A stretch of 64,000 nucleotides of DNA from an uncultured Candidatus Berkelbacteria bacterium. GTDB taxonomy: Bacteria > Patescibacteriota > UBA1384 > UBA12157 > JAENIV01. This document shows positions 1,413-19,057 of this stretch, piece after piece. The position numbers were made by a program, and so were the translations under genes. The notes below the pieces were generated by a model that was not told where the DNA came from, ran no database searches, and saw only the letters and a program-made list of their open reading frames with translations. How positions within the stretch are numbered: position 1 is the first letter of the stretch; every line of letters starts with the position of its first letter. The stretch lies in NCBI GenBank assembly GCA_963698075.1, contig OY969116.1, positions 670,131 through 734,130 on the forward strand. The letters are read 5' to 3'.

Positions 1413-2933
1413 ATGGCTGATGTTGATTTACAACTCCAACGCATGGCGCGCGAGGATGAGGAACGCCATGCCAAAGAAGAGGCCAAGAAATTAGGCCTTC
1501 CTTATATTAATTTGGTGGGCTATCCTTTTGCGCCGGATGTGATGGCTTTAGTGCCCGATGACATGGCTAATCAATATGGAATTGTTGCCTATCTTAGGGC
1601 CGACGATCTTATCCGCCTGGCCACCCACGAGCCGCAAAATCCGGAACTGAAAAACATTATTACCAAACTTCAAGCCGCCAACAAGGCCAGAATTGAAATT
1701 TCTTTTTGCTCGGAAACTTCCATCCGTTACGCCCTTGATTCTTATCGGCTTCTTTTACCCAAAACCAAGGAAGCCAAAGTTGAAGTCACCAAAGAAAAAG
1801 CAGCCAGTTTCGAAAAAGAAATTGAAACTCTCGAAGGGCTCAAAGAAAAAATTTCTCAAGTTTCCACCACCGAACTTTTGGACGTTCTTTTCGCCGGAGC
1901 AATTAAGCTTGATGCCTCGGATATCCATATTGAGCCCGGGGAACAAAATTTTCGAATTAGGTATCGCATCGATGGTGTTTTGGAAGAGATCGCTGAACTA
2001 CCAATGAGCGCCTTCCATAATCTTTTGAGCCGTGTCAAATATTTGGCCAAACTCAAATTGGATATCACTCATCCCCAAGACGGCCGTTTTGAAGTAAAAG
2101 TGTTAGCAACTGACGTTGATATTCGCGTTGCTACTTTACCGACTTCTTACGGCGAGGCGGTCGGGATGCGGCTTTTGCCCAAAAATAAAAAATTTTTAAA
2201 GCTGGAAAATTTGGGTTTTCCCGAAGATGTTTTAAAAATGATCCGCGAGGCAATCACTAAAACCCAAGGGATGATTATTAACACCGGACCAACTGGCTCT
2301 GGGAAAACCACGACATTATATGCCATCCTGCAGGAATTAAACCAACCCGGTAAAAAAATTATCACCCTGGAAGATCCGATTGAATATCGCGTCCAAGGCA
2401 TTGAGCAAATTCAAATTGATACTGAGAACAAAACTGGATTTTTGGATGCCCTTAAAGGTTCTTTGCGTCAAGACCCCGATATTTTGATGATTGGTGAGAT
2501 TCGCGATCAAGAAACTGCCCGCATCGCCCTGCAGGCAGCAATGACCGGCCATTTGGTTTTAACAACTTTACACACCAACAATGCCCCAGCCGCCCTGGCG
2601 CGCCTAGTAGATATTGGCGTCGAGCCATATTTACTCGCCGGCTCAATTAATTTAATTATTGGTCAAAGATTAGTAAGAACTATTTGTAAAAAGTGCTTTG
2701 GTAAAGGTTGTGAAGTCTGCCGGAAAACCGGTTTTCGCGGCCGAATCGCAATTGTCGAAGCCATTGTTCCCGGTGCGGAAATTGAAAACTTGATTCGCCA
2801 AAAAGCGGCACTGAGAACTTTTGAAGAAACTGCCCATAAATTAGGGATGCGAACCATGTATGAAGATGGGATGGATAAAGTTTCGAAAGGCCTAACGACT
2901 AAAGAAGAAGTAGAAAGAATCACCAAAGAGTAA
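1413..2933 (+). CDS. pilB: type II secretion / type IV pilus assembly ATPase (GspE/PilB family)
   Basis: Walker A motif GPTGSGKTTT. N-terminal GspE_N-like domain. C-terminal tetracysteine CxxC...CxxC (CKKCFGKGCEVCRK). Aspartate/His boxes typical of secretion ATPases. Confidence 0.85.
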   Translation: MADVDLQLQRMAREDEERHAKEEAKKLGLPYINLVGYPFAPDVMALVPDDMANQYGIVAYLRADDLIRLATHEPQNPELKNIITKLQAANKARIEISFCSETSIRYALDSYRLLLPKTKEAKVEVTKEKAASFEKEIETLEGLKEKISQVSTTELLDVLFAGAIKLDASDIHIEPGEQNFRIRYRIDGVLEEIAELPMSAFHNLLSRVKYLAKLKLDITHPQDGRFEVKVLATDVDIRVATLPTSYGEAVGMRLLPKNKKFLKLENLGFPEDVLKMIREAITKTQGMIINTGPTGSGKTTTLYAILQELNQPGKKIITLEDPIEYRVQGIEQIQIDTENKTGFLDALKGSLRQDPDILMIGEIRDQETARIALQAAMTGHLVLTTLHTNNAPAALARLVDIGVEPYLLAGSINLIIGQRLVRTICKKCFGKGCEVCRKTGFRGRIAIVEAIVPGAEIENLIRQKAALRTFEETAHKLGMRTMYEDGMDKVSKGLTTKEEVERITKE

Positions 2934-2957
2934 AATTCAAATATCAAGCACCAACAT

Positions 2958-3011
2958 CCATTCAAATCTGAAATCTCAAATTTTGAAAATTGAAATTTAG
3001 AGTTTGAATGG
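2958..3011 (+). terminator. AT-rich imperfect palindrome downstream of pilB (ccattcaaa...tttgaatgg with inner tcaaattttga repeats); possible terminator
   Basis: Inverted repeat 2958-2966 / 3003-3011 enclosing shorter palindromic words. The loop is long and there is no clean T-tract. Confidence 0.25.
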
Positions 3012-3063
3012 TTATTGGGATTTAATAATTGGCAGTTTTCAGCATAATTCGTTCTCTATCCCC

Positions 3064-3092
3064 TTGATTTTTGGGCCATTTTATGGTATAAT
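3064..3092 (+). promoter_or_regulatory. sigma70-type promoter: TTGATT-17 bp-TGgTATAAT (extended -10)
   Basis: -35 TTGATT at 3064-3069. 17-nt spacer. TG at 3084-3085. TATAAT at 3087-3092. It is located in AT-rich DNA upstream of the GC-rich M48 gene. Confidence 0.45.
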
Positions 3093-3175
3093 CATATGTT
3101 AGTATAGAAGTACCTGAACAACTTCTCCTGTTGGATAACAGGTTTGGGATAACACTACGGATAAGGAGGCGCACC

Positions 3176-4666
3176 ATGTTGCGTCTGAAAGGGATGGTCG
3201 TTGTGCTGGTCGTTCTGGCGGCGATGCTTTCTCAGGTTGCCACCAGGGCCGATGAGGCCACAACCCAGAAGGTGGTCGCTGGTCTGATGGTGCTCAATGC
3301 CCTTCGGGGCACGAGCGATTCTGAACTGCTCCAGATAGGCCGCCAGCTCGATGAAGGGCTGGTACGCCAATACGGCACAACCACCAACGGGCTCGCAAGG
3401 GCCCAGAGAGTGGTCGCCAGATTGGAGCCTCACACAGCCAAGCGGCCAGAGGTCAAGGTTCTGAATTCTGCCGAGGTCAATGCCATGGCTGTTCCTGGCC
3501 ATGTCTATGTCACCTCGGCGCTCTTGTCCCAGGCCAACGACGATCAGTTCGCCGGCGTGATGGGGCATGAACTGTCTCACATCGAAGCCGGCCACTGCCG
3601 CCGGGCGATCAACCGGGCACGCATTGCTCAGGGTGTTGGTGGGGTACTGTATTTGGCCAACGCCAACCAGTCCATCGCCACCGGCGTCTCGCTTCTCGCC
3701 CTCGCCACGATTTTCGACTACAGCCGGGGCGAGGAATACGAGGCCGACAAGCTCGGAGCCGAACGCGCCAGCCAAGCCGGCTACAGTCATGACGGCTTGG
3801 CTTCGTTCCTCGAGCGCAGTGAAGGCAACAGCGACCGGGCCAACCAGTTGCTGTCATCGCACCCCCGCACCGACCGCCGCGTCACCGCCTTACGAGAGGG
3901 CAACGCCGGCTCGGTTCGGGCGACATCGGCCGGCACGGTTCGGGGCTCGGTGGTGGAGAAGTTTTCCGTCAGCTTCACCGGCATGAACAGCGAGCAGTTC
4001 AGCCAGGGCTTCCTGCTGTTGGCTGACCATGAAGGCCAGCCGGTAGATGTGCTGGACTCGGGAGGGGATTATCCGATCCAGCTTAACGGCGATCAGCGCG
4101 ACCTGCCGCTCGGGGTCAATGTCTCGACCAGCGGCCGCGACGGCTATGTCAATACTGGCGTGACCGATCGGATGACGTGGGTGTTGGTGGCTGATATCTA
4201 CCAAGGCAATCGCCGTCTGACGCCCGAATCGGCTAGCGCTTCCGGCTGGCGTGGGTATCTCCATGCCGGCAAGTTCACGTCGCATGGGGCTGTTACCCTC
4301 GATTTCTACAACTCCTACCTGGGCGAGTCTCTCCAGGGTCAGGCCGTCAGGGGGTTGGTGCCGATCGTGCTCCACCGACTGCAAGAGCAGGAACGCCTGA
4401 GGGTCGCCAATCAGCCGCGGGAAGCGACAGGCGATGGATCCGTCGAGCCCGCTGCCACATACCGCTATATTCTGATGCTGAATCGGGAAGTCCCAGTGGC
4501 GCTTTCCCGGTCGCTCAGCAACGACTCGCCAATCGGCATCTATCGAGGGAGCCATCAGATCGGCTCCCTCAAGGTTGACTGGTTTAACAATGACCACACC
4601 AAGGTGTGGGTCTCCGGGGACACAGGTGTCGCTCAACAGAAAGGCGTCACCTTCAAGTCCCTATGA
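3176..4666 (+). CDS. secreted M48-family zinc metalloprotease with a roughly 300-aa C-terminal extension (GC-rich xenolog)
   Basis: HELSH zinc motif followed by EEYEADKLGAE (third-ligand Glu, M48 signature). N-terminal signal peptide MLRLKGMVVVLVVLAAMLSQVA. SD AAGGAGG 7 nt before the ATG at 3176 (the ORF track's upstream M at 3131 lacks an SD). Composition is much more GC/Ala/Gly/Arg-rich than the neighbours. Confidence 0.7.
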   Translation: MLRLKGMVVVLVVLAAMLSQVATRADEATTQKVVAGLMVLNALRGTSDSELLQIGRQLDEGLVRQYGTTTNGLARAQRVVARLEPHTAKRPEVKVLNSAEVNAMAVPGHVYVTSALLSQANDDQFAGVMGHELSHIEAGHCRRAINRARIAQGVGGVLYLANANQSIATGVSLLALATIFDYSRGEEYEADKLGAERASQAGYSHDGLASFLERSEGNSDRANQLLSSHPRTDRRVTALREGNAGSVRATSAGTVRGSVVEKFSVSFTGMNSEQFSQGFLLLADHEGQPVDVLDSGGDYPIQLNGDQRDLPLGVNVSTSGRDGYVNTGVTDRMTWVLVADIYQGNRRLTPESASASGWRGYLHAGKFTSHGAVTLDFYNSYLGESLQGQAVRGLVPIVLHRLQEQERLRVANQPREATGDGSVEPAATYRYILMLNREVPVALSRSLSNDSPIGIYRGSHQIGSLKVDWFNNDHTKVWVSGDTGVAQQKGVTFKSL

Positions 4667-4686
4667 GAAGAACGATCCGACGCACC

Positions 4687-4735
4687 AAGAAGGACGCGCA
4701 CCCGCGCGTCCTTCTTTCGTATCTTTTAATTTTTG
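4687..4735 (+). terminator. rho-independent terminator (AAGAAGGACGCGC-ACCC-GCGCGTCCTTCTT followed by a T-rich tail)
   Basis: Perfect 13-bp GC-rich stem with a 4-nt loop, followed by tcgtatcttttaattttt. Confidence 0.65.
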
Positions 4736-4744
4736 CCAAAAAGT

Positions 4745-5059
4745 TTAGGGTTGTCCGCCTGTAACAATAGAACTGACCCATCTAACAATGACGAAGGCAA
4801 GAGCAATGATAATAATGCCGATGATGGCATTTATGAGAGCCGTTCTTCCTTTGGTTGCCTTTTCCGCATCGCCGCCCGCGGTAATGTACAAAAGCCCACC
4901 ATAAATTAGGTAGATGACGGCAATGGCGCCGGCCAAAACCAAGACCCAGGTGACAACAAAATCAATTATTCCTCCTGAGCCAGTCAACCTTAGACCAATT
5001 GGGACCGGAGTGATTGTCGGCCAACTTAAGGCATAAGCTCTCTCAATTAAATTAAACAT
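4745..5059 (-). CDS. VirB2/TrbC-like pilin-domain protein (104 aa)
   Basis: Two hydrophobic helices with the motif YITAGGDAEKATKGRTALINAIIG. This motif is shared with three upstream paralogs. Confidence 0.55.
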   Translation of the reverse strand: MFNLIERAYALSWPTITPVPIGLRLTGSGGIIDFVVTWVLVLAGAIAVIYLIYGGLLYITAGGDAEKATKGRTALINAIIGIIIIALAFVIVRWVSSIVTGGQP

Positions 5060-5109
5060 TTGACCTCCTAATTAATTATAGCATATATTAATTTAAATTG
5101 TTTTTCAAA

Positions 5110-5895
5110 TCATTTGAGCAAGCCGAGAATCTCGTTCGATAAAACTCGGGCTAAAATAATAAAAACCAAACCAATGATTGCCCAGGTAATTGTTGTTTTG
5201 GCTTTGTTAGCTTTTTCTTCATTGCCGTAAGCGGTGAAATATTGAATACCAGCCCAGATTAAAAGAATAATGGCAATTCCGCCGGCCAAATCAGCGGCGA
5301 TGGTAATCAGGTTTTCGATCATACATTGGATGTTATCAAGAGTCCAAGTTGCGGGGTCGGTATCTGGTAAGATTGTTAGCGAAGGTTTACATTTAGTCCC
5401 ACTAGTCCCACCGCCTCCTGTAGTGCCGCCAGTCCCGGCACCGCCGCCGCCGCCTCCTCCTCCTGGACCAGCTGAGAGAGTGTAAGTGTAGGGCTGGCTT
5501 GAAAGCAGAACACTCCTTTGCCCATCAACAATTTTTCCCAGCACTAAAACAACAATATTATACGAACCGGCTTGACTGCCGGCGCTTCCAGTGTCCCAAA
5601 CATAGGTATAGGTTGAACTTGTCCCGCCGCTATAAGGATTAAAGCTTTGTTTAAGATATGGCTCAAGCTCCCCGGGTTTTTGAGAATTCATTTGGGTCAT
5701 ATAAAGATTTGTCATCTCGGCGCCCGAAGGTGTGTCAGTGACTTGAATTGTCAAAGTGACTTTATCGCCAACTTTGGCGGTGGCAGGATCAAAAGTAACA
5801 TTGATGGCTGGAGCGGCTTTAATTGATAACGGTAAGAGTAAAATTGATGTCAAAAAACCAAGTAAAAAAATTCCGCTGATATATTTTTTCATCAC
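5110..5895 (-). CDS. pilin-like protein: signal peptide + Ig-like domain + Gly-rich linker + C-terminal VirB2/TrbC-like module
   Basis: N-terminal signal. A roughly 110-aa beta-rich domain (VGDKVTL...YVWDTGSAG) that is paralogous to the one in 5892-6680. A G9 run. C-terminal module IQYFTAYGNEEKANKAKTTITWAIIG. Confidence 0.55.
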   Translation of the reverse strand: MMKKYISGIFLLGFLTSILLLPLSIKAAPAINVTFDPATAKVGDKVTLTIQVTDTPSGAEMTNLYMTQMNSQKPGELEPYLKQSFNPYSGGTSSTYTYVWDTGSAGSQAGSYNIVVLVLGKIVDGQRSVLLSSQPYTYTLSAGPGGGGGGGGAGTGGTTGGGGTSGTKCKPSLTILPDTDPATWTLDNIQCMIENLITIAADLAGGIAIILLIWAGIQYFTAYGNEEKANKAKTTITWAIIGLVFIILARVLSNEILGLLK

Positions 5896-6680
5896 CTTCC
5901 TTGTAAAACATTAACAACAGTATTAACAATCACTAAAGCCAAGGCAATCACCACCACGCCAATAATGGCCCAAATGAGGTTTTTCTTGGCATTCTCCGCC
6001 TTGGTCGGATCGCCGCCAGCAGTAATGTACATCAGTCCTGAATAGATAATGGCAATCACCGCCAAAGCGCCGGCTAAGGCCAAGAGCCAATCAATAATGG
6101 CGACAATTAAGTCACGAATGCTTCCAATTTTTGTTGGCGGGAAAATAATGGTGCCAATATCACCGAAACTGGCCTTGGCTGATGAGGAACCGGGTGTTGG
6201 GGTTACTGTTTTTCCCCCCGAGGGTGTGGCAGTTGGCGTCCCACCAGAAGACGGAGATGGGCTGGGGGAGGTACTGGCCGCCAAGCTGTAGATGGCTGTT
6301 TGACTAAGGACGACAACATTATTTTCGTCAACCACAAAAACATTGATGTAATGCGAACCGGGGTTGCTTTCGGCGGCGGCGGCGGTGTCCCAAAGATACC
6401 AGTAATTTGGCGAGCCGCTGACCGGCCAGCTAGTTTTCAAATGGGGTGTGGCGTCCTGGAGCTTATTGGGATCAACGACGGTATCAGAAATATAAAGCAA
6501 AATTTTTTTAGCCGTGGCTGGTAGGTCAGAAACAAAAACATCAACATTGACCTTGTCGCCGACTTGAGCATTAATCGGAGTAACCTCAATTTGGACGCCG
6601 GCCAAGGCGGTCTTTGCGCCCACCAAAGCAATAAAAAGAAATAAGATAAAATAAAGAATTTTTTTCATGTATATTTCCAC
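5892..6680 (-). CDS. pilin-like protein: signal peptide + Ig-like domain + Ser/Pro/Thr-rich linker + C-terminal VirB2/TrbC-like module
   Basis: Paralog of 5110-5895 (VGDKVNVDV...YLWDTAAA). SPSPSPSSGGTPTATP linker. C-terminal MYITAGGDPTKAENAKKNLIWAIIG. 4-bp overlap with the downstream gene. Confidence 0.55.
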   Translation of the reverse strand: MEIYMKKILYFILFLFIALVGAKTALAGVQIEVTPINAQVGDKVNVDVFVSDLPATAKKILLYISDTVVDPNKLQDATPHLKTSWPVSGSPNYWYLWDTAAAAESNPGSHYINVFVVDENNVVVLSQTAIYSLAASTSPSPSPSSGGTPTATPSGGKTVTPTPGSSSAKASFGDIGTIIFPPTKIGSIRDLIVAIIDWLLALAGALAVIAIIYSGLMYITAGGDPTKAENAKKNLIWAIIGVVVIALALVIVNTVVNVLQGR

Positions 6681-7042
6681 TTAATCCCGACAGTTTTAAC
6701 CAAAATTACCTCGATTAAAATAAGCAAGACAATGCCGGTGATGACGCCAATAATAATATCTTTGGCTTGAGTAATGCCCTCGGGATTACCTTGGGAGGTG
6801 ACATAAACATAGCCGGCGTAAATAAACATCAAGGCCGCCAATGAGCCGACAATTGTTACCAGCCAAGTTAAAATTTTCGACATATACTGACCAAAGTTTG
6901 TCTGACCAAATTCGGTGACCACTGCCACCTGCCGAGGAGTAATCGAATTGTTTAAGGCCGAAGTTTTAATCGGCGCGGCCAAGGAAAAGAAAACCGTCAA
7001 CCAGATTGCAACGACAAAAAATATTTTTAAAAATTTAATCAT
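6665..7042 (-). CDS. VirB2/TrbC-like pilin-domain protein (125 aa)
   Basis: Signal peptide, short mature region, and the YVYVTSQGNPEGITQAKDIIIGVITG module. Overlaps both neighbours. Confidence 0.55.
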   Translation of the reverse strand: MIKFLKIFFVVAIWLTVFFSLAAPIKTSALNNSITPRQVAVVTEFGQTNFGQYMSKILTWLVTIVGSLAALMFIYAGYVYVTSQGNPEGITQAKDIIIGVITGIVLLILIEVILVKTVGIKWKYT

Positions 7043-8367
7043 TTTGGCAAAGCTTTCAAAAGATTAGTTATTTGCGCCGCCGCCCCTTCTAAAACAGTCT
7101 GGGGATTTTCTCCGGAAATCACGGCGCTTGCGGCCTCTCGGAAGATTTGATCAACCTTTGTCGGTTCAGGATTATACCAACTGGAAGCATATTGATTTTG
7201 GACATCAATGAAAACATCTGAACCCTGGACTTTATCTTTGCGCGCTTGTGGTAGGCCAGTTTTGGAGATGTATTTCATTTGGATTTGGGGATCCAAGATG
7301 TAGCTAATTAGGGCCCAGGCCCTTTCGGCATTTTGACTACTTTTAGGAACGGTCAAAACTTGATAATTAGCGATATCTTGGGGATTTTCGGATTCTTTAA
7401 ATTGAGGCAAAGCTGCCACCTCGGCTGCGCGACCAGTATCTTTCTTAATGTCTTTGGCTCTCCTTGACCAATCAAGATACATGGCGATTTTGCCGCTGGT
7501 GAAGGCATTGTAATCGTTTTGACTCTCATCCCAAGTGTAGCGGGCATCATTTCTAGTCGCGAAGCTGGTATAAAAAGAAAGTCCTTTGGTGCCAGGATAG
7601 GCGACATCAGAAAATTTATTGGTAGAGGTCTGGAAAAGGGCGGCGGTTTTGTCGTCAGAGGTCATTTGGGCGCCGTACTGGAGCATTAAGGCGGTCAAAA
7701 TATCGCTGGCGCGCGTGACATTTTTGGCGCCGCCTATAGCGATGGCGCCTTGACCATAATATTTAATAAATTGGCTTAAATCTTCCCAAGTTTTAGGGGG
7801 ATTATTAAAAAGTTGTCTGACATCGGTGATGTCTTGCCCTTGGTGGGCCCGGGCGTAATCAGAGAGCTTGCTCGAGAAGAGTTCACTGTTATAAAAAAGT
7901 GAGAGACTGTCGGCAAAAAGGGGCAGGCAATAAACTTGATCAGAAATGATACAATCTTGGCCCGCGGCATCTAAAAAGGTTGCTTGGAAAATTTCCGCAT
8001 TGGTTTTTTTGCCCTTGGGATCAAGTTTCTTTGAGGCCAGCGTCGCTAATTTATCGTGGTGTTTTGCGAGCCAATTGTTGGGGATAATCCAAATGTCTGG
8101 GCCGGTGCCGGCGGCGATAGCGTTGATGGATTCTTCTTCGAACTTGGCCGGGTCTTTTTTAACAAATTTAATGTCGAGATCTTTGTTTTCAGCCAAGAAC
8201 TGGCTGAAAATATCGCTGAAATCTTCTTCGCTGTCAAAGGAGTCCCAGATGGTGACGGTCGAAGTAGTCGGACCCTTCGGTGTCCGGTTGCGGGTGGCTA
8301 AAAAAAGGACAAGAACAATAATCAAAAGTACCAGCAGTCCGCCCAAAATATAATATCTTTTGTCCAT
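7039..8367 (-). CDS. extracellular solute-binding protein (ABC transporter SBP family 1-like) with N-terminal membrane anchor
   Basis: N-terminal TM helix. Then TVTIWDSF...AIAAGTGPDIWIIPNNW, typical of MalE-like SBPs. No permease or ATPase partner in the window. Confidence 0.55.
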   Translation of the reverse strand: MDKRYYILGGLLVLLIIVLVLFLATRNRTPKGPTTSTVTIWDSFDSEEDFSDIFSQFLAENKDLDIKFVKKDPAKFEEESINAIAAGTGPDIWIIPNNWLAKHHDKLATLASKKLDPKGKKTNAEIFQATFLDAAGQDCIISDQVYCLPLFADSLSLFYNSELFSSKLSDYARAHQGQDITDVRQLFNNPPKTWEDLSQFIKYYGQGAIAIGGAKNVTRASDILTALMLQYGAQMTSDDKTAALFQTSTNKFSDVAYPGTKGLSFYTSFATRNDARYTWDESQNDYNAFTSGKIAMYLDWSRRAKDIKKDTGRAAEVAALPQFKESENPQDIANYQVLTVPKSSQNAERAWALISYILDPQIQMKYISKTGLPQARKDKVQGSDVFIDVQNQYASSWYNPEPTKVDQIFREAASAVISGENPQTVLEGAAAQITNLLKALPK

Positions 8368-8381
8368 TCCCCTCCTTTAGT

Positions 8382-9251
8382 CTATTCTTTAACAACCTCT
8401 TTTAAATATTTTTTAAACTCCTCTTTTAGATCTTCTCTTTGAAGTCCAAATTCCACGTTGGCTTTAAGATACTCCAGCTTGTTGCCGGTGTCGTAATATT
8501 TTCCGTTTTCAATCTCCCGGGCGTAAATTTTGTGGTTTTTCTTTAAGACATTAATACCATCAACCAGCCAAATTTCTCCTCCCTTGCCGGCCCTGAGATT
8601 TTTCAAAGCCGCAAAAATATCTGGGGTTAAAATATAGGCTCCATGAGTTGCCAGGTTTGATGGAGCTTTGTCCGGTTCGGGTTTTTCGACAATTTCTTCA
8701 ATTTCAAAAATTTTATCTTCAACCGGCTTGACTTTAGCAATGCCATATTTATTTAAATAATCTTTGCGTACGCGGACTGCCGAAATAACGGGATCTTTGA
8801 ACTTATCAAAAACTTCAATCATTTGTTTAAGGCGCGGCGGTTCGGCATAGATAAATTCATCACCCCAAAGCACGGCGAAGGGCTCGTTACCAATAATCGG
8901 TTCGGCATTTAAAACCGGGGTGGCATTGCCGTAAGGTCCTTTCTGGCGGATATAAATAAAGTTAGCTAGTCTGGCAATCCTGCGGATTTCTTCCAATTGC
9001 TCTAATTTTCCGCACTTTTCTAAATAATTTTCTAATTCTAAAGTATGATCAAAATGATCTTCGATCGCCCGCTTGTTATAACCGGTGACAATGATAATAT
9101 CCTCAATCCCGGAGGCAATTGCTTCCTCAACGACATATTGAATCACCGGCTTATCGATGATCGGTAACATCTCTTTGGGCGAGGCTTTGGTCATCGGCAA
9201 AAACCGCGTGCCGTAGCCCGCCGCTGGGATAACTGCTTTGCGAATTTTCAT
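8382..9251 (-). CDS. galU: UTP--glucose-1-phosphate uridylyltransferase
   Basis: N-terminus KAVIPAAGYGTRFLPMTKASPKEMLPIIDKPVIQYVVEEA is the canonical GalU signature. Confidence 0.85.
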   Translation of the reverse strand: MKIRKAVIPAAGYGTRFLPMTKASPKEMLPIIDKPVIQYVVEEAIASGIEDIIIVTGYNKRAIEDHFDHTLELENYLEKCGKLEQLEEIRRIARLANFIYIRQKGPYGNATPVLNAEPIIGNEPFAVLWGDEFIYAEPPRLKQMIEVFDKFKDPVISAVRVRKDYLNKYGIAKVKPVEDKIFEIEEIVEKPEPDKAPSNLATHGAYILTPDIFAALKNLRAGKGGEIWLVDGINVLKKNHKIYAREIENGKYYDTGNKLEYLKANVEFGLQREDLKEEFKKYLKEVVKE

Positions 9252-9256
9252 AAAAA

Positions 9257-9646
9257 TTACCCTTCGGTTTTTACTTCAATCGTTTTGACTTTGGTTTTTT
9301 CCTGTTTGGGGATGGTAATCGTCAGAATTCCATTTTTGAGTGAGGCTTGAGCCTTGTCGCCAATCACCGGCACGGGCAGGACATACGCTCGGGAGAAACC
9401 TCCCCAATAACATTCTTGACAAAGATAATTTTCTCGTTTGACCTCTGATTCTTCTTTTCTTTCGCCTTTGATATTGACGACCTCATCAGTTATTGAGATT
9501 TCTAAATCCTCCGGTCTAACACCGGCAATGGGAGCTTTTAAAACAACATTATCATCATTTTGGTAAACATCAACCGCCAATTGCCCTTCGGTTTCTTCCA
9601 TCCAATCGGGATTATTCGGCGTACTAATTGATTGATCTTCAGCCAT
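9257..9646 (-). CDS. Hsp20/alpha-crystallin family small heat-shock protein
   Basis: Alpha-crystallin domain (VDVYQNDDNVVLKAPIAGVRPEDLEISI...GILTITIPK). Strong SD AAGGAGG. Confidence 0.85.
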   Translation of the reverse strand: MAEDQSISTPNNPDWMEETEGQLAVDVYQNDDNVVLKAPIAGVRPEDLEISITDEVVNIKGERKEESEVKRENYLCQECYWGGFSRAYVLPVPVIGDKAQASLKNGILTITIPKQEKTKVKTIEVKTEG

Positions 9647-9696
9647 AAGACCTCCTTAAATTAGTTTTATCAATCTTAGTATAATCTTCGCAAGAA

Positions 9697-9756: not shown

Positions 9757-11172
9757 TTGTTTAAACTTCGATTTATTTTGATGATGGGCTTGATCATATC
9801 GGTCTCCGGAGGGATAGTTCTTGGTAATCCTCACAAAGCTCAGGCCTACAATCCTAACAACTTAATCTCGGACGCCGAATTTCTGGATTGGCGAACTCTT
9901 GATGCTGACGGTGTTCAAAGTTTTCTTAATACTAAGGGAGGAACGAGACTTCGAACTTTTCGTGAAGGCGGCCGCACCGCCGCGCAAATTATTGCCACGG
10001 CGGCCAGAGCCAACGGTATTAATCCCTTTGTGATTTTGGCGACCATTCAAAAAGAAGAAAGCTTAATTGAATCAAACACCAATTTTGACTATCGTGTCCG
10101 TTGGGCCATGGGTTATGGCATTTGTGATGGTTGTGATTCCAACGACCCGGCGCTGCAAAAATATGCCGGGTTCACTAATCAGGTTTACAACGGCACCTGG
10201 CAATTAAAACGCAATTACAGTTATTGGGCATCTTTCGGAGCTTATAAAGTTGGCAATACGATGATTATTGATGGCGCGGCTGTTCATTTGGACAATCGGG
10301 CAACTTCAGCCCTTTATCGTTATACGCCCCATCTTCATGGTAATGAAAGTTTTGTCGGAATTTATAGTCGTTATAAAACTTATCGCCCACCGGCGACCTA
10401 TGATGCCAAGCTTATTTCCCAAGTACCGCGCGCCAATTACACTGCCCGGCCCGGTCAAAAGATATTAATGGTGGTCAATTATCGTAATCTCGGCACCGCG
10501 GTTTGGTCTAAAACCGGCGCCAACCCGATGCACCTCGGTAACTATGGTCCTATGGACCGCGGGTCAATCTTTACTGGCGGCGGCAATGTTCGCTGGGAAA
10601 TGGTTCAATCCCTTGTCAGACGAAATGGGGTAGGCACCTTCAGGATTTACTTTACGGCGCCCCAACAATCAGGCGTTTATGTCGAAACATTCCGGCCAGT
10701 GATGGAAGGCGTGACCTGGATGGGCAATGAGGTTTCCTATGTCATAAATGTTGGCGGAGTACCGGTTAATCAAACTGGAAAAACAAATCTTAATTCAAAT
10801 CCTAATACGAGCCCCGAAAGTTATAACGCCCAGTTATATAAGCAAGTTGGCACAACGCAAATGATTGCTGGTAGGAGCCAGACAATTTTTGTTTACTATC
10901 GCAACACTGGTAGTTCCACCTGGTATAAAAGCGGCGCTAATCCCACTTATCTCGGCAATTCCTCTCCTCAAGATCGAACCAGTGTTTTTACTGGTGGAAA
11001 TATTCGTTGGCAATTGGTCCAATCCGCTGTTGCCCCCGGTCAACTTGGCCTTTTTAAAATTACCATCACCGCCCCCAAAGAGAAAGGTAATTATACGGAA
11101 AAATTCCGTCCGCTAGTTGAAAATAAGACATGGATGGGAAACGAAGTTACCTTTAATTTCACCGTTAAATAA
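9757..11172 (+). CDS. secreted protein with two tandem ~115-aa beta-rich (Ig/NBR1-like) repeats
   Basis: Signal peptide. Internal repeats (YDAKLISQVPRANYTARPGQ...WMGNEVSYVINV and YNAQLYKQVGTTQMIAGRSQ...WMGNEVTFNFTV). SD GAGGAGG. Confidence 0.5.
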   Translation: MFKLRFILMMGLIISVSGGIVLGNPHKAQAYNPNNLISDAEFLDWRTLDADGVQSFLNTKGGTRLRTFREGGRTAAQIIATAARANGINPFVILATIQKEESLIESNTNFDYRVRWAMGYGICDGCDSNDPALQKYAGFTNQVYNGTWQLKRNYSYWASFGAYKVGNTMIIDGAAVHLDNRATSALYRYTPHLHGNESFVGIYSRYKTYRPPATYDAKLISQVPRANYTARPGQKILMVVNYRNLGTAVWSKTGANPMHLGNYGPMDRGSIFTGGGNVRWEMVQSLVRRNGVGTFRIYFTAPQQSGVYVETFRPVMEGVTWMGNEVSYVINVGGVPVNQTGKTNLNSNPNTSPESYNAQLYKQVGTTQMIAGRSQTIFVYYRNTGSSTWYKSGANPTYLGNSSPQDRTSVFTGGNIRWQLVQSAVAPGQLGLFKITITAPKEKGNYTEKFRPLVENKTWMGNEVTFNFTVK

Positions 11173-12423: not shown

Positions 12424-13968
12424 GTGTTTCAAAATCAAACTTTCAAAAAATTTTTCAATTCTGACTGGAAGATTGGGATTTTTCTTTTTTTAATTGCGGC
12501 CGCCATCCGCATGATTCCGGAAATCAAAGCCGGCATTTGGCCAATTGGCTATGATACCTTCAATACTTATGCCGCCGAACTCGCCACCTATAACGGACCG
12601 CTCGTCAATTGGATTAAGACCGCGAATATTTTGTATTTTTTCTTTTTACCTTTTAAGGCCGCTGGTCTTTCGCCGGATCTGATTATGAAAATTTCCGGAC
12701 CTCTTATTTATGGTGGTCTTATAACAAGTTTTTTTGTTTTTGCCCGGCGATTCTTGAAATTCTCATTTCTTAAAGCTTTTCTTTTGACGGCCTTGACCAT
12801 TTTTCAATTAGCTAGCTTAAGAATCAGCTGGGATCTCTATCGTAATGAGCTCGGTCTTATCTTTCTATTTTTGGGGCTAATCTATTTACCAAAACTGAAC
12901 GAAACTAAAAATTTAATCATTTTTTCTATTTTTGCAACGCTTGTCACTTTTTCCAATGAATTAGTGACAGTTTTACTCCTGGTGATTCTTTTGGTTTATT
13001 CTGGCTATTATTTAGTCAAACAACGTTGGGAACAGTTAGTCTCTGTTCTTATTCCTTTAATGATTGTTGCTACCCTTTTTGTCGTTGTTATTAGTTCTTC
13101 CGGGCAAGTTCTTTATAATTCTCACGTCTTTTTTGCCTCCCAGAAGAATTATTTTTGGCGCTACTTTTATCATTATAATCTTGATATGCCTTACAGTCTT
13201 TTGAAAGAAATTATCTTAAGCCTTTTTTGGTTGCTCTTTGGTTATCTTTTACCTTTCGCTATCATTGGTTTCTGGCGATTAAGAAAAAATCTCGTTTTGA
13301 CAGTGATGACTGGCTGGTTACTCATTAGTACCTTTTCCTCTTTGATTTTTTTGGGCAACGGCTTAATGGTTTGGGAGCGTTGGATGTTTATGCTCATCTT
13401 TCCCTTTGTCATTTATACCATCGAAGGAATGTTTTTTGTCGGTTCCCTTTTGGGTGGTCTTAAAAAATGGGCCGAAAAAAAACAAAAATTTGCCTATTTG
13501 TTGGCAGTGGTTTTTTGGGTGGTAACCTTCGGATTTTTTATTGGCAAAAGCTGGCCATTCTTAACCGCTGATTACCGTCAGGCCAAACCCCCGCTTGCCA
13601 ACGATGAATTAAACAGTTATTTTCCCAGAACCATGGTTCATAGTTCACTCGAGATATGGCTTATTCCCGATACCGTAGCAGCAATTAAATGGCTCGATCA
13701 GCATGCCCCGGCGGGCTCAGTTATTTTGGTTGATAATCGCTATCGAGGAATGATGTTAACCAATTTTAGTATTGATGATCGCTATATCATTACCAATGAA
13801 TGGTCTAATACCATTCAAAGTAGCGCTTTGGACCTGGCTAAAAAAAGTAATTATTGGCCAATCTATCTTATCTGGAATATCTCACGTTCAATTCCGGATT
13901 TTGATCGCGTTTACAACGCCGGTGACCGCGGTATTTATCAAGCTTTGCCCTCTTTTCGTAATCAATGA
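12424..13968 (+). CDS. polytopic membrane protein (>=10 TM) with C-terminal soluble domain; possible GT-C-type glycosyltransferase
   Basis: Many hydrophobic helices. GTG start with SD. Family not recognised. Confidence 0.4.
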   Translation: MFQNQTFKKFFNSDWKIGIFLFLIAAAIRMIPEIKAGIWPIGYDTFNTYAAELATYNGPLVNWIKTANILYFFFLPFKAAGLSPDLIMKISGPLIYGGLITSFFVFARRFLKFSFLKAFLLTALTIFQLASLRISWDLYRNELGLIFLFLGLIYLPKLNETKNLIIFSIFATLVTFSNELVTVLLLVILLVYSGYYLVKQRWEQLVSVLIPLMIVATLFVVVISSSGQVLYNSHVFFASQKNYFWRYFYHYNLDMPYSLLKEIILSLFWLLFGYLLPFAIIGFWRLRKNLVLTVMTGWLLISTFSSLIFLGNGLMVWERWMFMLIFPFVIYTIEGMFFVGSLLGGLKKWAEKKQKFAYLLAVVFWVVTFGFFIGKSWPFLTADYRQAKPPLANDELNSYFPRTMVHSSLEIWLIPDTVAAIKWLDQHAPAGSVILVDNRYRGMMLTNFSIDDRYIITNEWSNTIQSSALDLAKKSNYWPIYLIWNISRSIPDFDRVYNAGDRGIYQALPSFRNQ

Positions 13969-14669
13969 TTGTCAAAGTAAAAGAATTTTTTCTTGACCTC
14001 CTTTTTCCTCGATTTTGTATTGATTGCGGTAAAGAAGACGAATGGTTGTGTTCTCTCTGTAAGAATAAAATTCTCAGGGCGAAGACTCAAGTATGTCCAG
14101 AGTGTGGCCGGATCTCTCGGTTTGGTCGATATTGTCGCCGACACCAAAAACGATGGGGACTTTCGGGAATCATCGTCGCTGCTTACTATGAGGAAGGACC
14201 AATCAAAGAGGCCATTCATAATTTCAAATACAATCACATTTTGGAAATGAAAGATATTTTAGGCGAAGTCTTGGCAGAATCATTAAAGGATAATCTCGAC
14301 ATTGCCAAAGATATCTTGGTCACCGCCGTGCCTTTACATTTTCTTCGTCAAGCTCAACGTGGCTATAATCAGTCAGAACTTCTAGCAGACTATGTTGCCG
14401 ATAAATTGAAATTACCAAAAAACTTTCACATTTTAAAGAAAATGCGCTGGACGAAACCACAGGTTCAATTAGGAGGCAAAAAAAGATTAAAAAATCTTAC
14501 CAATTCGTATAAAATTTTTAAAAAATTTGACCCAAATTTTATTCGTCGAAAAACAATTATTCTTGTTGATGATGTCACCACCACCGGCACTACTTTAAAC
14601 GAATGTGCTAAAGTTTTACGCGCCGCTGGTGCCAGAAGAGTTTGGGGCCTGGTGGTGGCCAAAGGATAG
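13965..14669 (+). CDS. comF: ComF-family protein (phosphoribosyltransferase domain)
   Basis: N-terminal double CxxC zinc finger. C-terminal PRTase motif IILVDDVTTTGTTLNE. Confidence 0.8.
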   Translation: MIVKVKEFFLDLLFPRFCIDCGKEDEWLCSLCKNKILRAKTQVCPECGRISRFGRYCRRHQKRWGLSGIIVAAYYEEGPIKEAIHNFKYNHILEMKDILGEVLAESLKDNLDIAKDILVTAVPLHFLRQAQRGYNQSELLADYVADKLKLPKNFHILKKMRWTKPQVQLGGKKRLKNLTNSYKIFKKFDPNFIRRKTIILVDDVTTTGTTLNECAKVLRAAGARRVWGLVVAKG

Positions 14670-16563: not shown

Positions 16564-17571
16564 TTGAAATTATTGGCTCCGGCTAATCCAGGGGAACTAT
16601 CGGATCGCGAGCGTTGGTTTAAAATGCCCGAAGCAAGAAAATTAGCCCAACAAAAAAGGGTAATATTCGGGATTGAGATGAAGGGACCGCTGGAAAATAT
16701 CCAAGAAGCCCCACCCGTATATTGGGGTTTACATCTGCCCGATACGCTGGCGACCGAATGGTACTACCATCCCGCTAGAAGAGAGGCGATGACGAGGGAG
16801 GTCGAGCGGGTGGCAAAACTTAAACCCGCTTATGCGGTTTTGCACGGTATCCATCTTCTCTGGCACCCACCAACAAGAGAGTATATTCAGCGTTACGCTA
16901 ATCGCAGCGATGCCGCAGAATATCTCAAAATCCTTGACGAAAATATTAAATTCATCCAAAGAATTAAAACAATTCTGCCTATAAGGATCGAAAATTTCCC
17001 TCTTTATAATTATTACCAAAAAGATGGTGAATTTTTGCCGGAAACTTATCTTTATACGGGCATTGGCCGCCTTAATGATTTATTTTATCTTAAACAAAAA
17101 ACCGGAGTCGACATTTTATTGGATCTTGAGCATTTGATTTTAACGATTAATTTTCTCAATCGCCGGCGCAATTATCATAAACTACCCAAAGAAAATCCTG
17201 GCAAGTTGAAAAGGGAAGAAAAAACCGCCAAGGATATCTTCGGCTTTTATCTGAAGAAAAATTTGATTCCTTATGCGGATGAGGAGATTAAAATGGAAAA
17301 GATAATCAAAAAAATCGGGGCTAAATTTTATCACCTGACTGGCTCAGTTCAAGATGTCATTCCTGGCAAAAAAATTATCACTCATGGCCCGATTAAAATT
17401 TCTGACAAAACTTTTCGGAAAAATTTGCGGTCGATTCTTGCTCAAAAACCTGAAGTATTGGTGGTGGAGACCGCCAGCTTTGCCGACTCTAATGCCTGGA
17501 AACATCTTCGTCCCAACGAAACCGAGATTTCGTTTAATAACTTGTGTGAGATTTTGTTAGAAGAACTCTAA
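16564..17571 (+). CDS. TIM-barrel-like (xylose isomerase / AP-endonuclease-2-like) hypothetical protein, paralog 1 (AT-rich copy)
   Basis: Shares the motifs G(I/F)xxKG, WxxH(L/P), (L/V)xIHxxxx, D.EH...T.NF and (I/L)xH.G with the next two genes. TTG start after a GAGGAGGA SD. Confidence 0.45.
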   Translation: MKLLAPANPGELSDRERWFKMPEARKLAQQKRVIFGIEMKGPLENIQEAPPVYWGLHLPDTLATEWYYHPARREAMTREVERVAKLKPAYAVLHGIHLLWHPPTREYIQRYANRSDAAEYLKILDENIKFIQRIKTILPIRIENFPLYNYYQKDGEFLPETYLYTGIGRLNDLFYLKQKTGVDILLDLEHLILTINFLNRRRNYHKLPKENPGKLKREEKTAKDIFGFYLKKNLIPYADEEIKMEKIIKKIGAKFYHLTGSVQDVIPGKKIITHGPIKISDKTFRKNLRSILAQKPEVLVVETASFADSNAWKHLRPNETEISFNNLCEILLEEL

Positions 17572-17605
17572 TCCGACGAATCTTTTCACTCATTAGTCAC
17601 GAATT

Positions 17606-17634
17606 GGGGTCGAATTCTCGGCCCGTTTTTGTTT
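17606..17634 (+). terminator. rho-independent terminator GGGGUCGAAUUCUCGGCCCG + U5
   Basis: 7-bp stem including one G-U pair, 4-nt loop, then a T-run. A near-identical copy lies at 18909-18941. Confidence 0.6.
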
Positions 17635-17653
17635 ACCCTGAGCCAAGTCGAAG

Positions 17654-17690
17654 GGTTGACAATTATTAGACAATGATGTTAATCTAAAAT
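17654..17690 (+). promoter_or_regulatory. candidate promoter TTGACA-17 bp-TTAATC upstream of paralog 2
   Basis: Consensus -35 and a weak -10. Followed by an AAGGAGGA SD. Confidence 0.3.
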
Positions 17691-17717
17691 GTCGAATATC
17701 CGGCAAGGAGGAGATCG

Positions 17718-18887
17718 GTGCAACTTGAAAAGACATCGTTGGTATCACCTTTAGGCAAAGGTGACTATGAGAGAGGTGAACGCTGGGTGTTAATGAAGGC
17801 TTTGTATCCAAGACTGGCAAAGTACGATTGGACTTTAGGGATTGATTTCAAAGGCAATAGTTTGGAGCCCGAAAAATGGGTTCTTGATATCGCCGATGAG
17901 ATTCGTAATTGGGGAGGGTTCTTGGGCTGGCATCCTTCTAAAGTTGTTTCCGAAAGCCTCGGTGATCCAAAAGAGCCGCTACCGCCGTCCCTTCTGAAAT
18001 GCGCCAGACAAGCAAAATCCTTAGGTTTGAAACTGCTGACCATTCATTCAGCTGCCAAAACTGAAAATGAGCCCGGACCTGAAGCTGGACTTGGACGTTA
18101 CAGTTCAACCACCACGCCTGAAGAAGATCTGGCCAGGATTGAGGCAATGATTGATCCTCTCTGTCAAGCGGCTGAAGCTTCTGGTGGAGTCTTAAGTTTG
18201 GAGCCAACTGATATGGCCCAATTCCGCGATGGCGGCTATCATTTGCCGACCTTCAAAGAGCAAATTTGGGCCGGTATGCTTGAGATGTTGCTTTATCTCC
18301 GTTCAAAGGTTGAAGAGCGTTCAGGCATTCGTATGCCGATGACATTCGATGACGAACATGTCCTCGGGCTCTGGAACTTCAAAGCTCGCCGCCGTGATTT
18401 GGCGAGTCTTCCCTGGTGGCAACCAGCAAAGCCTAGGCCGGCGCAGGTTGAGCTGGCTGACATCACCGGTTGTTGGTTTGAAAAAGGAATGCCGCCGGTT
18501 TTGCTCGAGCGGCCGCCGGATTACGCCACTGATTTGGAATGGGATATGGCGATCATCAACGACGGGCTGAAAAAGTCTCAACCGGTCTTGATCCATACTG
18601 GGGCCAGCGTTCAGGCAACAAGATACAATCCCCAGACCGCTCAGGATGAAATTGACACCCATCTTCCCTATAATGCCTTCGACACCGACCAGATGACCTT
18701 GCTCGATCTGAAGTTGCAATATGCCGTCAGCCATCCTGACTGCTATGGTATAGAAAACGAAGTAGTGGGAAGCGGTTTTTTGCTGGGGCGCTACAGTCCT
18801 TGGAGCCCACGACCATTTGATAATGAGATGGCAATGTTTCTTTCAGCGGTGGTAGAAGTCGACCGCATAGCAGCGATATCAAGCTAA
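17718..18887 (+). CDS. TIM-barrel-like hypothetical protein, paralog 2 (GC-rich copy)
   Basis: Homologous to 16564-17571 (motifs GIDFKGNSLE, LGWHPS, LTIHSAAK, LIHTGAS). GTG start 5 nt after the AAGGAGGA SD. High GC. Confidence 0.5.
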   Translation: MQLEKTSLVSPLGKGDYERGERWVLMKALYPRLAKYDWTLGIDFKGNSLEPEKWVLDIADEIRNWGGFLGWHPSKVVSESLGDPKEPLPPSLLKCARQAKSLGLKLLTIHSAAKTENEPGPEAGLGRYSSTTTPEEDLARIEAMIDPLCQAAEASGGVLSLEPTDMAQFRDGGYHLPTFKEQIWAGMLEMLLYLRSKVEERSGIRMPMTFDDEHVLGLWNFKARRRDLASLPWWQPAKPRPAQVELADITGCWFEKGMPPVLLERPPDYATDLEWDMAIINDGLKKSQPVLIHTGASVQATRYNPQTAQDEIDTHLPYNAFDTDQMTLLDLKLQYAVSHPDCYGIENEVVGSGFLLGRYSPWSPRPFDNEMAMFLSAVVEVDRIAAISS

Positions 18888-18908
18888 ACATAATAACTAG
18901 TGGACAAC

Positions 18909-18941
18909 GGGTCGAACTCTCGGCCCGTTTTTCGTTTTTTT
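18909..18941 (+). terminator. rho-independent terminator GGGUCGAACUCUCGGCCC + U-tract (copy of 17606-17634)
   Basis: Same stem as the upstream copy, with one loop substitution, followed by tttttcgttttttt. Confidence 0.6.
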
Positions 18942-19057
18942 GAACCTGTTTTAACGGCTCAGGTGGTGAGCCGGTGAGCCGTTGACTATTTTGCTGATAA
19001 TGATATATTAAAAAGCCCCGCGTGGCGGAAAGCGAACCTCACAACCGAGGCAAGGAG

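Follow-up and report, generated by a model that had tools for sequence, protein, structure and literature searches.

A tandem array of four VirB2/TrbC-related pilin genes, two with predicted Ig-like passenger domains, in a Candidatus Berkelbacteria genome

The contig OY969116.1 of an uncultured Candidatus Berkelbacteria bacterium (assembly GCA_963698075.1) was analysed over 64,000 nt (positions 670,131 to 734,130; hereafter the window), and four consecutive minus-strand open reading frames (ORFs) of 104, 261, 262 and 125 aa within it are the subject of this report. An earlier note, made from the sequence alone, had described them as VirB2/TrbC-like pilin genes lying next to a PilB/GspE-type ATPase gene, and the ORFs lie where that note had placed them (Table 1). 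Our results support the assignment of all four products, on sequence evidence, to the VirB2/TrbC-related T4SS_pilin family, and we describe them as four old, non-redundant paralogs of the VirB2/TrbC superfamily in an origin-proximal operon of a Berkelbacteria-like genome of the Patescibacteria (Candidate Phyla Radiation, CPR). With moderate confidence, we favor the explanation that they constitute a conjugation-type set of four pilin subunits, which presents tethered Ig-like domains and is assembled by a type IV secretion system (T4SS) encoded elsewhere in the genome. Family membership, fold, architecture, orthology, chimerism, synteny and purifying selection can be read directly from the comparisons given below.

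Pilin family, fold and passenger domains

All four ORFs exceed the gathering threshold of Pfam family PF18895 (T4SS_pilin), with 41.9-55.5 bits against 26.6 bits and E-values of 1e-10 to 6e-15, and the C-terminal module ascribed to them in the earlier note therefore reflects true homology rather than chance. The profile search proposed in that note gave a weaker result for the second family, PF04956 (TrbC; threshold 27.9 bits), for which the window proteins stay below threshold: the two long pilins score 24.3 and 24.5 bits (E ~3e-5), the 104-aa pilin scores 10.6 bits, and the 125-aa pilin has no listed match in the Pfam scan. Related loci, designated here by L-numbers, come from metagenome-assembled genomes of Berkelbacteria and other Patescibacteria, and the orthologs of the position-2 pilin in two of them clear the TrbC threshold (29.2 bits in L003 and 28.8 bits in L020). 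In addition, the four window pilins match NCBIfam model NF045849 at E-values of 5e-5 to 3.6e-8, with scores of 23-33 bits against a cut-off of 40.

Among the four window paralogs the module is 30-54% identical. The motif Y[IVF]TA[GY]G[DN]...AIIG, which had been ascribed to every member, is literally present in three genes, and the 125-aa pilin has a divergent module (YVYVTSQGN...IIIGVITG) behind a signal peptide and a short mature N-terminal segment. Signal peptides with n-, h- and c-regions and an AxA-type site can be read from the sequence in three of the four pilins, and the 104-aa protein begins instead with a hydrophilic N-tail followed by the two-helix T4SS_pilin module. As to the claimed VirB2/TrbC pilin architecture, the family and the hairpin are thus borne out by PF18895 and by AlphaFold2, and the signal peptide is lacking from the 104-aa member and from several orthologs. 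In the 261-aa pilin the module starts at the conserved mature N-terminus TILPDTDPATW. The likely start of the position-2 pilin is the ATG at 6668, which gives a protein of 258 aa identical to database protein P0001.

The AlphaFold2 model of the 262-aa pilin (21-sequence alignment; mean predicted local distance difference test score, pLDDT, of 79) falls into four parts, namely a signal-peptide helix, a beta-sandwich, a disordered linker and a helical hairpin with helices at residues 184-216 and 221-255; a hairpin is likewise predicted for the 104-aa pilin (residues 28-59 and 65-99, pLDDT >90). A Foldseek search with this short pilin returned nothing significant, and since its best match, the Aeropyrum conjugation pilus 8dfu, had an E-value of 2.4, structure search cannot discriminate a pilin from other hairpins. 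When the pilin-family profile was compared with the sequences of solved structures, only trivial matches to antibody light chains were obtained, which span the signal peptide and first strand, and neither VirB2 nor TraA appeared.

The structure prediction suggested in the earlier note was more informative for the N-terminal domains of the two long pilins. Their description as a signal peptide followed by a paralogous beta-rich domain stands: the two domains are 35-39% identical to one another, and that of the 262-aa pilin is modelled as a seven-strand beta-sandwich (pLDDT 89-96), followed by a linker (model residues 139-174) with pLDDT below 50. Foldseek relates the sandwich to generic Ig-like or macroglobulin (MG)-type domains, the best match being 2p9r_B (E 5.6e-5, target TM 0.62). 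A profile made from both window domains found only 57 matches in 1.84 billion representative proteins, of which about 15 are pilin fusions of 234-354 aa and the remainder are giant multi-repeat proteins; those of the giants that were examined contain Big_7, DUF7743 or Big_3 repeats (E down to 4e-18). The direct Pfam score for Big_7 is 13.5 bits against a threshold of 24.1. Judged from the model and the profile matches, it appears correct to call both N-domains Ig-like and to assign them to no particular adhesin family. Both kinds of linker reported earlier are present, although the glycine run of the 261-aa pilin (residues 145-152) is of eight residues and not nine. It is speculation that the Ser/Pro/Thr-rich linkers are targets of O-glycosylation.

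Comparison with relatives suggested that the two Ig-pilins have different histories. With the N-domain of P0008, which belongs to another population, is of position-2 type and has a module 84% identical to the window position-2 module, the Ig domain of the 261-aa pilin shares 73% identity, against only 35% with the window's own position-2 domain. The module of the same 261-aa protein shares 74% identity with the short position-3 pilin of L002 over the whole length of the latter. On these identities, the 261-aa gene is chimeric and joins an Ig domain of foreign, position-2 origin to a pilin of position 3. The graft was placed exactly before the conserved mature N-terminus ILPxxDPxTW, which in other lineages follows directly after the signal peptide or the initiator methionine, and which is kept at position 3 with or without a preceding signal peptide or Ig domain. 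All 15 relatives examined have a short pilin at position 3, and among the loci compared an Ig domain occurs there only in the window. An origin of the two Ig-pilins by recent tandem duplication was rejected, both because their Ig domains are so far apart in sequence and because the 261-aa gene is chimeric.

N-terminal extensions are mostly found on position 2 (223-397 aa in total length) and are absent from it in six lineages, in which the position-2 pilin has 102-122 aa. Elsewhere, passengers occur on position 1 (L013 and L014), as C-terminal extensions (L015) or, in the unrelated organism L019, as C-terminal PKD domains. By sequence comparison, the passenger domains are modular and have been gained and lost.

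Several individual loci may be mentioned in this connection. The position-1 pilin of L014 (3394-4107) has a beta-rich domain and a (TG)n linker, the 397-aa position-2 pilin of L016 (8311-9504) apparently has two beta-rich domains and a Gly-rich linker, and the C-terminal extensions of the L015 pilins (8480-9671) are rich in Ser, Thr and Asn. L019 (10001-20588) derives from an organism that encodes an SLH-domain protein; there, a 195-aa T4SS_pilin is followed by a 561-aa protein made of a T4SS_pilin hairpin and C-terminal PKD, then by giant PKD-repeat proteins (at least 2110 aa), and a canonical type IV pilus cluster (PilC/N/O/PilB) lies about 6 kb off. Finally, P0047-P0050 are proteins of about 430 aa, one of them labelled Gammaproteobacteria by NCBI. 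In P0047, the one that was scanned, a TrbL/VirB6 domain is joined to an N-terminal hairpin of pilin type, which narrowly misses the T4SS_pilin threshold with 26.0 bits, so that the protein is an apparent VirB2-VirB6 fusion.

Conservation of the locus and alternative readings

The position-2 pilin has about 20 full-length homologs at 33-80% identity, all annotated with PF18895 and one named "pilin [Patescibacteria group bacterium]" by NCBI. Each window pilin module best matches the gene in the same position in at least 10 loci, with identities to these orthologs of 48-95% for the position-4 module and 37-89% for position 1, which indicates that the four paralogs are old and positionally fixed rather than the result of recent amplification. 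The conserved gene order comprises the gene of a solute-binding protein (SBP) and pilins 1 to 4, and, on the opposite strand, genes for a GC-rich secreted protein and the PilB-type ATPase. Beyond the ATPase gene the relatives have jag, yidC and rnpA, with dnaA another 4-8 kb on, and the HSP20 and GalU-like genes have also kept their place. When the window is compared with L002, the ratio of nonsynonymous to synonymous substitution rates (dN/dS) comes to 0.08 in the pilin module, 0.21 in the Ig domain, 0.07 in the ATPase and 0.09 in the SBP, and ranges from 0.07 to 0.22 over pilin modules, Ig domain, linker, SBP, ATPase and M48 peptidase; every gene compared is, by this measure, under purifying selection. 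The loop and helix motifs of the pilins are strongly conserved over paralogs and lineages, with invariant G, Y, A and K.

In the solved conjugative pili, the F-pilus and the T-pilus, both termini of the pilin lie on the outer face of the fibre, and VirB2-type pilins are extracted and assembled by VirB4-type T4SS machinery. Along the same lines, each of the four proteins would form a helical hairpin in the membrane, with both ends outside and the basic loop (TAGGDxxKAxxAKK) inside, and would be inserted through its Sec signal peptide or by a signal-peptide-independent translocation of the N-tail. The position-2 pilin, and here also the position-3 pilin, would have its fast-evolving Ig-like (Big_7-like) sandwich and flexible linker between the signal peptide and the mature N-terminus, and would therefore have this domain tethered outside the cell; the external location would follow from the cleavable signal peptides together with the N-out/C-out topology of VirB2. 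Having both termini outside fits passengers that come after signal peptides as well as the C-terminal Pro/Ser tails or PKD domains that come after helix 2. The most likely fate of the four pilins would be extraction and polymerisation into a short conjugation-type pilus or conduit by a VirB4-type (MPF-FATA-like) T4SS encoded elsewhere in the genome, and the Ig domains on its outer face would serve as modules for contact or adhesion. The topology, the formation of a filament, the machine that assembles it and the adhesion are thus what we infer, and a putative role of the array in host attachment is plausible. The adjacent PilB-type ATPase is a conserved neighbor whose role in the pilin system is unproven.

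Several points weigh against this reading. VirB4, VirB6, VirB3 and VirB8 were not found among the Pfam-scanned ORFs of the window, which comprise the majority of those with 110 aa or more (all but seven ORFs, of 113-330 aa), nor among the Pfam-annotated genes over about 10 kb on the dnaA side in relatives, and the array is therefore not clustered with a T4SS in either set of genes. The partner search that had been proposed thus came out negative for VirB4 and VirB6, as it did for PilC and PilM, within the scanned window ORFs. No pilus of PF18895 proteins is known to have been observed in any monoderm or CPR organism. The helical hairpin, as modelled, is too simple to tell a pilin from a generic membrane anchor, and the Ig domain matches no specific adhesin family, all of its Pfam Ig-type matches being below threshold. 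In addition, the specific and conserved adjacency of a PilC-less PilB-type ATPase stays unexplained by a T4SS model.

Some of the same observations are just what would be expected if no filament were formed, that is, if the PF18895 hairpins remained in the cell membrane, possibly as hetero-oligomers, and the long forms anchored Ig-like adhesins at the surface. We consider this unlikely, though it is the alternative that survives best. A plain two-helix hairpin without a significant structural match, a neighborhood in which the scanned window ORFs include no T4SS, and passengers at either terminus and at various positions of the array, as a generic anchor would show, are all consistent with it, and a pilus of this family is so far unobserved in monoderms (PMC12102498, PMC12857230). 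However, a mere anchor would need neither the conserved loop and helix motifs nor a fixed order of four paralogs, and homology to TrbC/VirB2 at the profile level also argues for pilins, as does the essentiality of the pilin array within the T4SS cluster of Southlakia (PMC10633639).

The ATPase raises a different question. It has an MshEN/GspE-N domain, the Walker A motif GPTGSGKT and a C4 zinc motif, and its best-matching NCBIfam models are those of GspE (TIGR02533, 449 bits) and PilB (TIGR02538, 441.5 bits), although both scores fall under the equivalog cut-offs (630.25 and 675.65) and place it only as a member of the superfamily. It scores 57.3 bits against VirB11 (TIGR02788; cut-off 249.95) and 45.8 bits against BasE (cut-off 1000). 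The type and the distance of 1.8 kb from the array given in the earlier note are accurate, but the ATPase gene is convergent with the pilin genes and separated from them by a GC-rich M48 peptidase gene and a strong hairpin terminator, and therefore lies outside the pilin operon. PilB/GspE ATPases assemble type IV pili, which are built from an unrelated class of pilins with class III signal peptides. The argument that a GspE-family ATPase powers the pilins considered here therefore merges two unrelated machineries, and the window showed no PilC among its scanned ORFs and no prepilin motif in any frame.

A reading that keeps the ATPase in play takes the SBP, the four VirB2-like pilins and the PilC-less PilB-type ATPase as one autonomous hybrid machine, in which the ATPase hexamer would engage the pilins at their cytoplasmic loop and serve either as a pilin dislocase or as a helper of the VirB11 kind. 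Such a machine would assemble a filament or a scaffold at the surface with neither a classical T4SS nor a type IV pilus system, as a functional analogue of the archaeal bindosome, and the scaffold might show the SBP and the Ig domains for host contact or nutrient capture. Orthologs of the ATPase (50-91% identity) adjoin the pilin array in 14 of the 16 loci with enough flank to be scored, down to about 31% identity of the SBP, and the adjacency is kept where the spacer gene differs or is absent, as in L021 with its gap of 45 nt between the ATPase gene (called at 399 aa) and the last pilin gene. By comparison, none of 79 metagenomic control loci (mainly generic PilB/GspE at 34-44% identity among the matches listed, taken as controls rather than as a survey of orthologs) has a T4SS_pilin within 8 kb, and a tblastn search with a PilC fragment gave a match in 37 of them and in neither the window nor the loci of the orthogroup. 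The stop codon of the SBP gene overlaps the start of the first pilin gene, and no partner of a T4SS or of type IV pili was found among the scanned window ORFs. VirB11, another member of the PF00437 superfamily, is required for the T pilus to form and provides a precedent for an ATPase that helps a VirB2 pilus.

Against a hybrid machine stand the convergent orientation with a terminator in between and the ATPase sequence itself, which is of PilB/GspE and not of VirB11 type (57 bits where about 250 are required). Synteny extends over the entire surrounding block, with HSP20, GalU, jag, yidC and rnpA among its genes, so that the adjacency is possibly inherited, and L007 and L018 have kept the SBP gene and the array with no ATPase gene in the next 8-9 kb. 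We know of no PilB-family ATPase that acts on VirB2-type pilins. Taken together, these points make the hybrid machine quite improbable. As the origin-proximal block is syntenic throughout the lineage, adjacency alone is no proof of function, and a functional link between the ATPase and the pilins is putative. The further proposal that a PilC-less PilB-type orthogroup was recruited to the pilin/SBP operon, and that the resulting surface machine also supplies the "missing adhesin" of the Patescibacteria T4SS, seems to us more doubtful still. If it were true, conjugation-class pilins would be combined with a motor of the type-IV-pilus class, modular Ig-like passengers (PKD in relatives) and a sugar-binding protein in a manner undescribed before. 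It may be added that the alignments of the ATPases of two more distant lineages, L014 (6750-7958) and L021 (11645-12844), cover only residues 133-506 and 140-505 of the window protein, and both appear from sequence to be without the GspE-N/MshEN domain of about 135 aa.

That the PilB-type ATPase builds a type IV pilus from these four proteins, as its type and its distance of less than 2 kb might suggest, is effectively refuted, since every defining feature of type IV pilins is absent: no class III signal peptide or prepilin motif (G/[FM]T[LI]xE; G/FTLIE in particular) occurs in any of the six frames of the window, the proteins are modelled as two-helix hairpins and not as a single N-terminal helix with a globular head, and T2SSF (PilC), PilM, PilN, PilO and PilD are missing among the scanned window ORFs.

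Operon, flanking genes and the remainder of the window

The coordinates of the array, its parts and its flanks are collected in Table 1.

Table 1. Features of the pilin array and its flanks, in window positions
Feature	Position	Strand	Basis
PilB/GspE-type secretion ATPase, 506 aa	1413-2933	+	Pfam T2SSE E 2.6e-116, MshEN
Secreted M48 metallopeptidase, 496 aa	3176-4666	+	Peptidase_M48 E 3.5e-26
Hairpin, 13-bp stem (8 G-C pairs), between convergent M48 and pilin genes	4687-4716		Terminator scan
Position-4 pilin, 104 aa	4745-5059	-	PF18895 E 7.5e-13
Position-3 pilin, 261 aa	5110-5895	-	PF18895 E 4.7e-13
Pilin module of the 261-aa pilin, residues 172-261	5110-5382	-	PF18895
Gly-rich linker of the 261-aa pilin: G8 run, then GTGGTTGGGGTSG	5383-5475	-	Sequence
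Signal peptide and Ig-like passenger domain of the 261-aa pilin, lineage-specific graft	5476-5895	-	Identity comparison
Position-2 pilin, 262 aa	5892-6680	-	PF18895 E 5.9e-15
Pilin module of the 262-aa pilin, residues 179-262	5892-6146	-	PF18895, TrbC 24.5 bits
Ser/Pro/Thr-rich linker (SPSPSPS, TPTATP) of the 262-aa pilin, predicted disordered	6147-6278	-	Sequence, pLDDT
Signal peptide (predicted cleavage after ALA) and Ig-like beta-sandwich of the 262-aa pilin	6279-6680	-	AlphaFold2, Foldseek
Position-1 pilin, 125 aa	6665-7042	-	PF18895 E 1.1e-10
Membrane-anchored family-1 (sugar-type) solute-binding protein	7039-8367	-	SBP_bac_8 E 6.7e-25, SBP_bac_1 E 9.4e-18
NTP_transferase, GalU-like	8382-9251	-	Pfam
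HSP20-family gene	9257-9646	-	Called in identical locus L001
Promoter-like site upstream of HSP20	9707-9678	-	Promoter scan

The pilin genes form the tail of a same-strand run, in which the HSP20 and GalU-like genes probably open the operon and are followed by the SBP gene and pilins 1 to 4. The overlap between the SBP stop and the first pilin start is of 4 nt, likewise in L001-L003 and L020, and the SBP gene lies upstream of the array in every related locus. The N-terminus of the SBP is a plain hydrophobic membrane anchor, the PDB sequences closest to it come from the sugar-binding subunits of ABC transporters, and its gene has neither an ABC permease gene nor an ABC ATPase gene nearby. The hairpin between the convergent M48 and pilin genes is likely, from its sequence, to terminate both transcription units.

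The M48 ORF has an ATG start behind an AGGAGG ribosome-binding site and a promoter-like site at 3064-3092, and stands out by a GC content of 0.615 and a third-position GC content (GC3) of 0.74, compared with 0.40-0.49 in neighboring genes. The gene that occupies this slot between ATPase and array is GC3-rich in every lineage examined (0.58-0.70 against 0.29-0.41 in relatives; L002 11645-13120, L005 11496-13169, L020 11432-12160 and L003 11458-12144), and the encoded proteins are only about 28% identical or have just a C-terminal domain in common, the M48 protease being absent. A recent horizontal acquisition of the M48 gene is unsupported, as the slot is GC3-rich even at 28% identity and no close homolog of the protein was found outside the lineage. 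An assembly chimera was also rejected as the source of the GC-rich gene, given that the independent Logan assembly L001 and the related contig L002 match the arrangement.

Upstream of the operon and divergent from it, a gene at 9757-11172 (+) encodes a secreted protein of 471 aa that carries an Ig-like domain of the N_BRCA1_IG family (E 4e-9) at its C-terminus, and its position is conserved in relatives. At 12424-14669 (+), the gene of a 514-aa polytopic membrane protein without a Pfam match overlaps the start of a ComFC-like gene (DZR_2 and Pribosyltran), and relatives have both genes in synteny with the pilin operon. The 514-aa protein (12424-13968) was considered as a VirB6 candidate and dropped, as its sequence reads like that of a polytopic GT-C-like membrane protein. 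Three consecutive ORFs at 16564-20188 (+), of 335, 389 and 388 aa, have no Pfam match at E <=0.001; the latter two are elevated in GC (0.50 and 0.53) and, judged by eye, resemble paralogs. The region from 11250 to 60103 reads largely as one of surface-polysaccharide biosynthesis, which is a considerable commitment in a genome of only about 0.93 Mb, with many GT1/GT4 glycosyltransferases, Wzm/Wzt ABC-2 exporter genes, two asparagine-synthase paralogs, a formyltransferase-GT fusion, a DegT aminotransferase and two flippase-like genes.

Comparison with known systems

The pilins resemble VirB2 of the T pilus, TrbC of RP4, TraA of the F pilus and the Aeropyrum pilin (8dfu) in being small hairpins of two hydrophobic helices with a short basic loop. 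Conjugative pilins usually have a leader peptide and both termini outside, and homology to TrbC is seen here at the profile level, with the window proteins under its gathering score. However, known conjugative pilins are of about 70-120 aa when mature, carry no folded passenger and are encoded together with VirB4, VirB6 and similar proteins, whereas in the system described here domains of 110-300 aa are tethered N-terminally, or C-terminally in relatives. The "Mbov_0395 family pilin-like conjugal transfer protein" (NF045849) of the Mycoplasma integrative and conjugative element shares the hairpin module and the wall-less or monoderm setting, although the window proteins fall under its cut-off, are not members of that family and lack the context of such an element.

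Like PilB, GspE and ComGA, the window ATPase has a T2SSE core, GspE-N/MshEN, Walker A and the C4 zinc motif; unlike them, it is encoded beside VirB2-like pilins, with no PilC, PilM or type IV pilin partners in the vicinity. The combination of a sugar-type SBP, small pilin-like proteins and a PilB-family ATPase recalls the archaeal bindosome (Bas: BasE, BasABC and sugar-binding proteins), but this is an analogy only, since the pilins are of VirB2 class, the SBP has no class III signal peptide and BasF/PilC is absent.

Patescibacteria depend on host bacteria, and Ig-pilins whose tethered domains evolve fast and can be swapped would provide a concrete and testable candidate for a surface that contacts the host. 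Tandem VirB2-like pilin arrays have been described in this group: in the survey of Quinonero-Coronel et al. (2025, PMC12102498), 441 arrays of 2-11 genes each occur in 383 assemblies, VirB4 occurs in 2,417 of 3,035 genomes (about 80% of Patescibacteria), and VirB2-like pilins are found in 1,948 assemblies with VirB4, in 1,135 of which a pilin gene is near virB4. The survey also states that T4SS genes are often close to dnaA, that comF is near T4SS loci in class ABY1, and that adhesins such as PrgB were not detected. In Southlakia epibionticum, the one genetically tractable species, the T4SS genes including the VirB2-like array are essential (Wang et al. 2023, PMC10633639), and a 2025 review raises a possible pilus in a monoderm (PMC12857230). 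The function of these T4SS genes is described as completely unknown.

The window array agrees with those of the survey in its tandem PF18895/PF04956 genes, in the location of the locus near dnaA in relatives and in paralog identity (30-54%, compared with a mean of 25% and a maximum of 54%; PMC12102498). It differs from the arrays presented in PMC12102498 and PMC10633639 in being flanked by an SBP gene and a PilB-type ATPase gene and not by virB4/virB6. Fixed order and position-specific orthologs suggest distinct roles of the four pilins, rather than the antigenic or host-range variation that has been proposed, and a fixed set of four paralogs argues for a heteromeric structure. The Ig-pilins may also be candidates for the adhesin role for which the survey detected no protein (PMC12102498). 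Passenger domains on these pilins, a position-specific four-paralog set and a pairing with an SBP and a PilB-type ATPase were not found described by term searches of PMC12102498 and PMC10633639 or by full-text library searches, within the text that these cover. If the PilC-less ATPase and SBP pairing is functional, it would represent a new combination of two otherwise separate classes of secretion machine; if the adjacency of the ATPase is only inherited synteny, the locus would be a well-behaved example of an already described feature. Tandem VirB2-like arrays are already known, and what this locus adds is a fixed order of old paralogs, the turnover of their passengers, a chimeric pilin gene, and the flanking SBP and ATPase genes.

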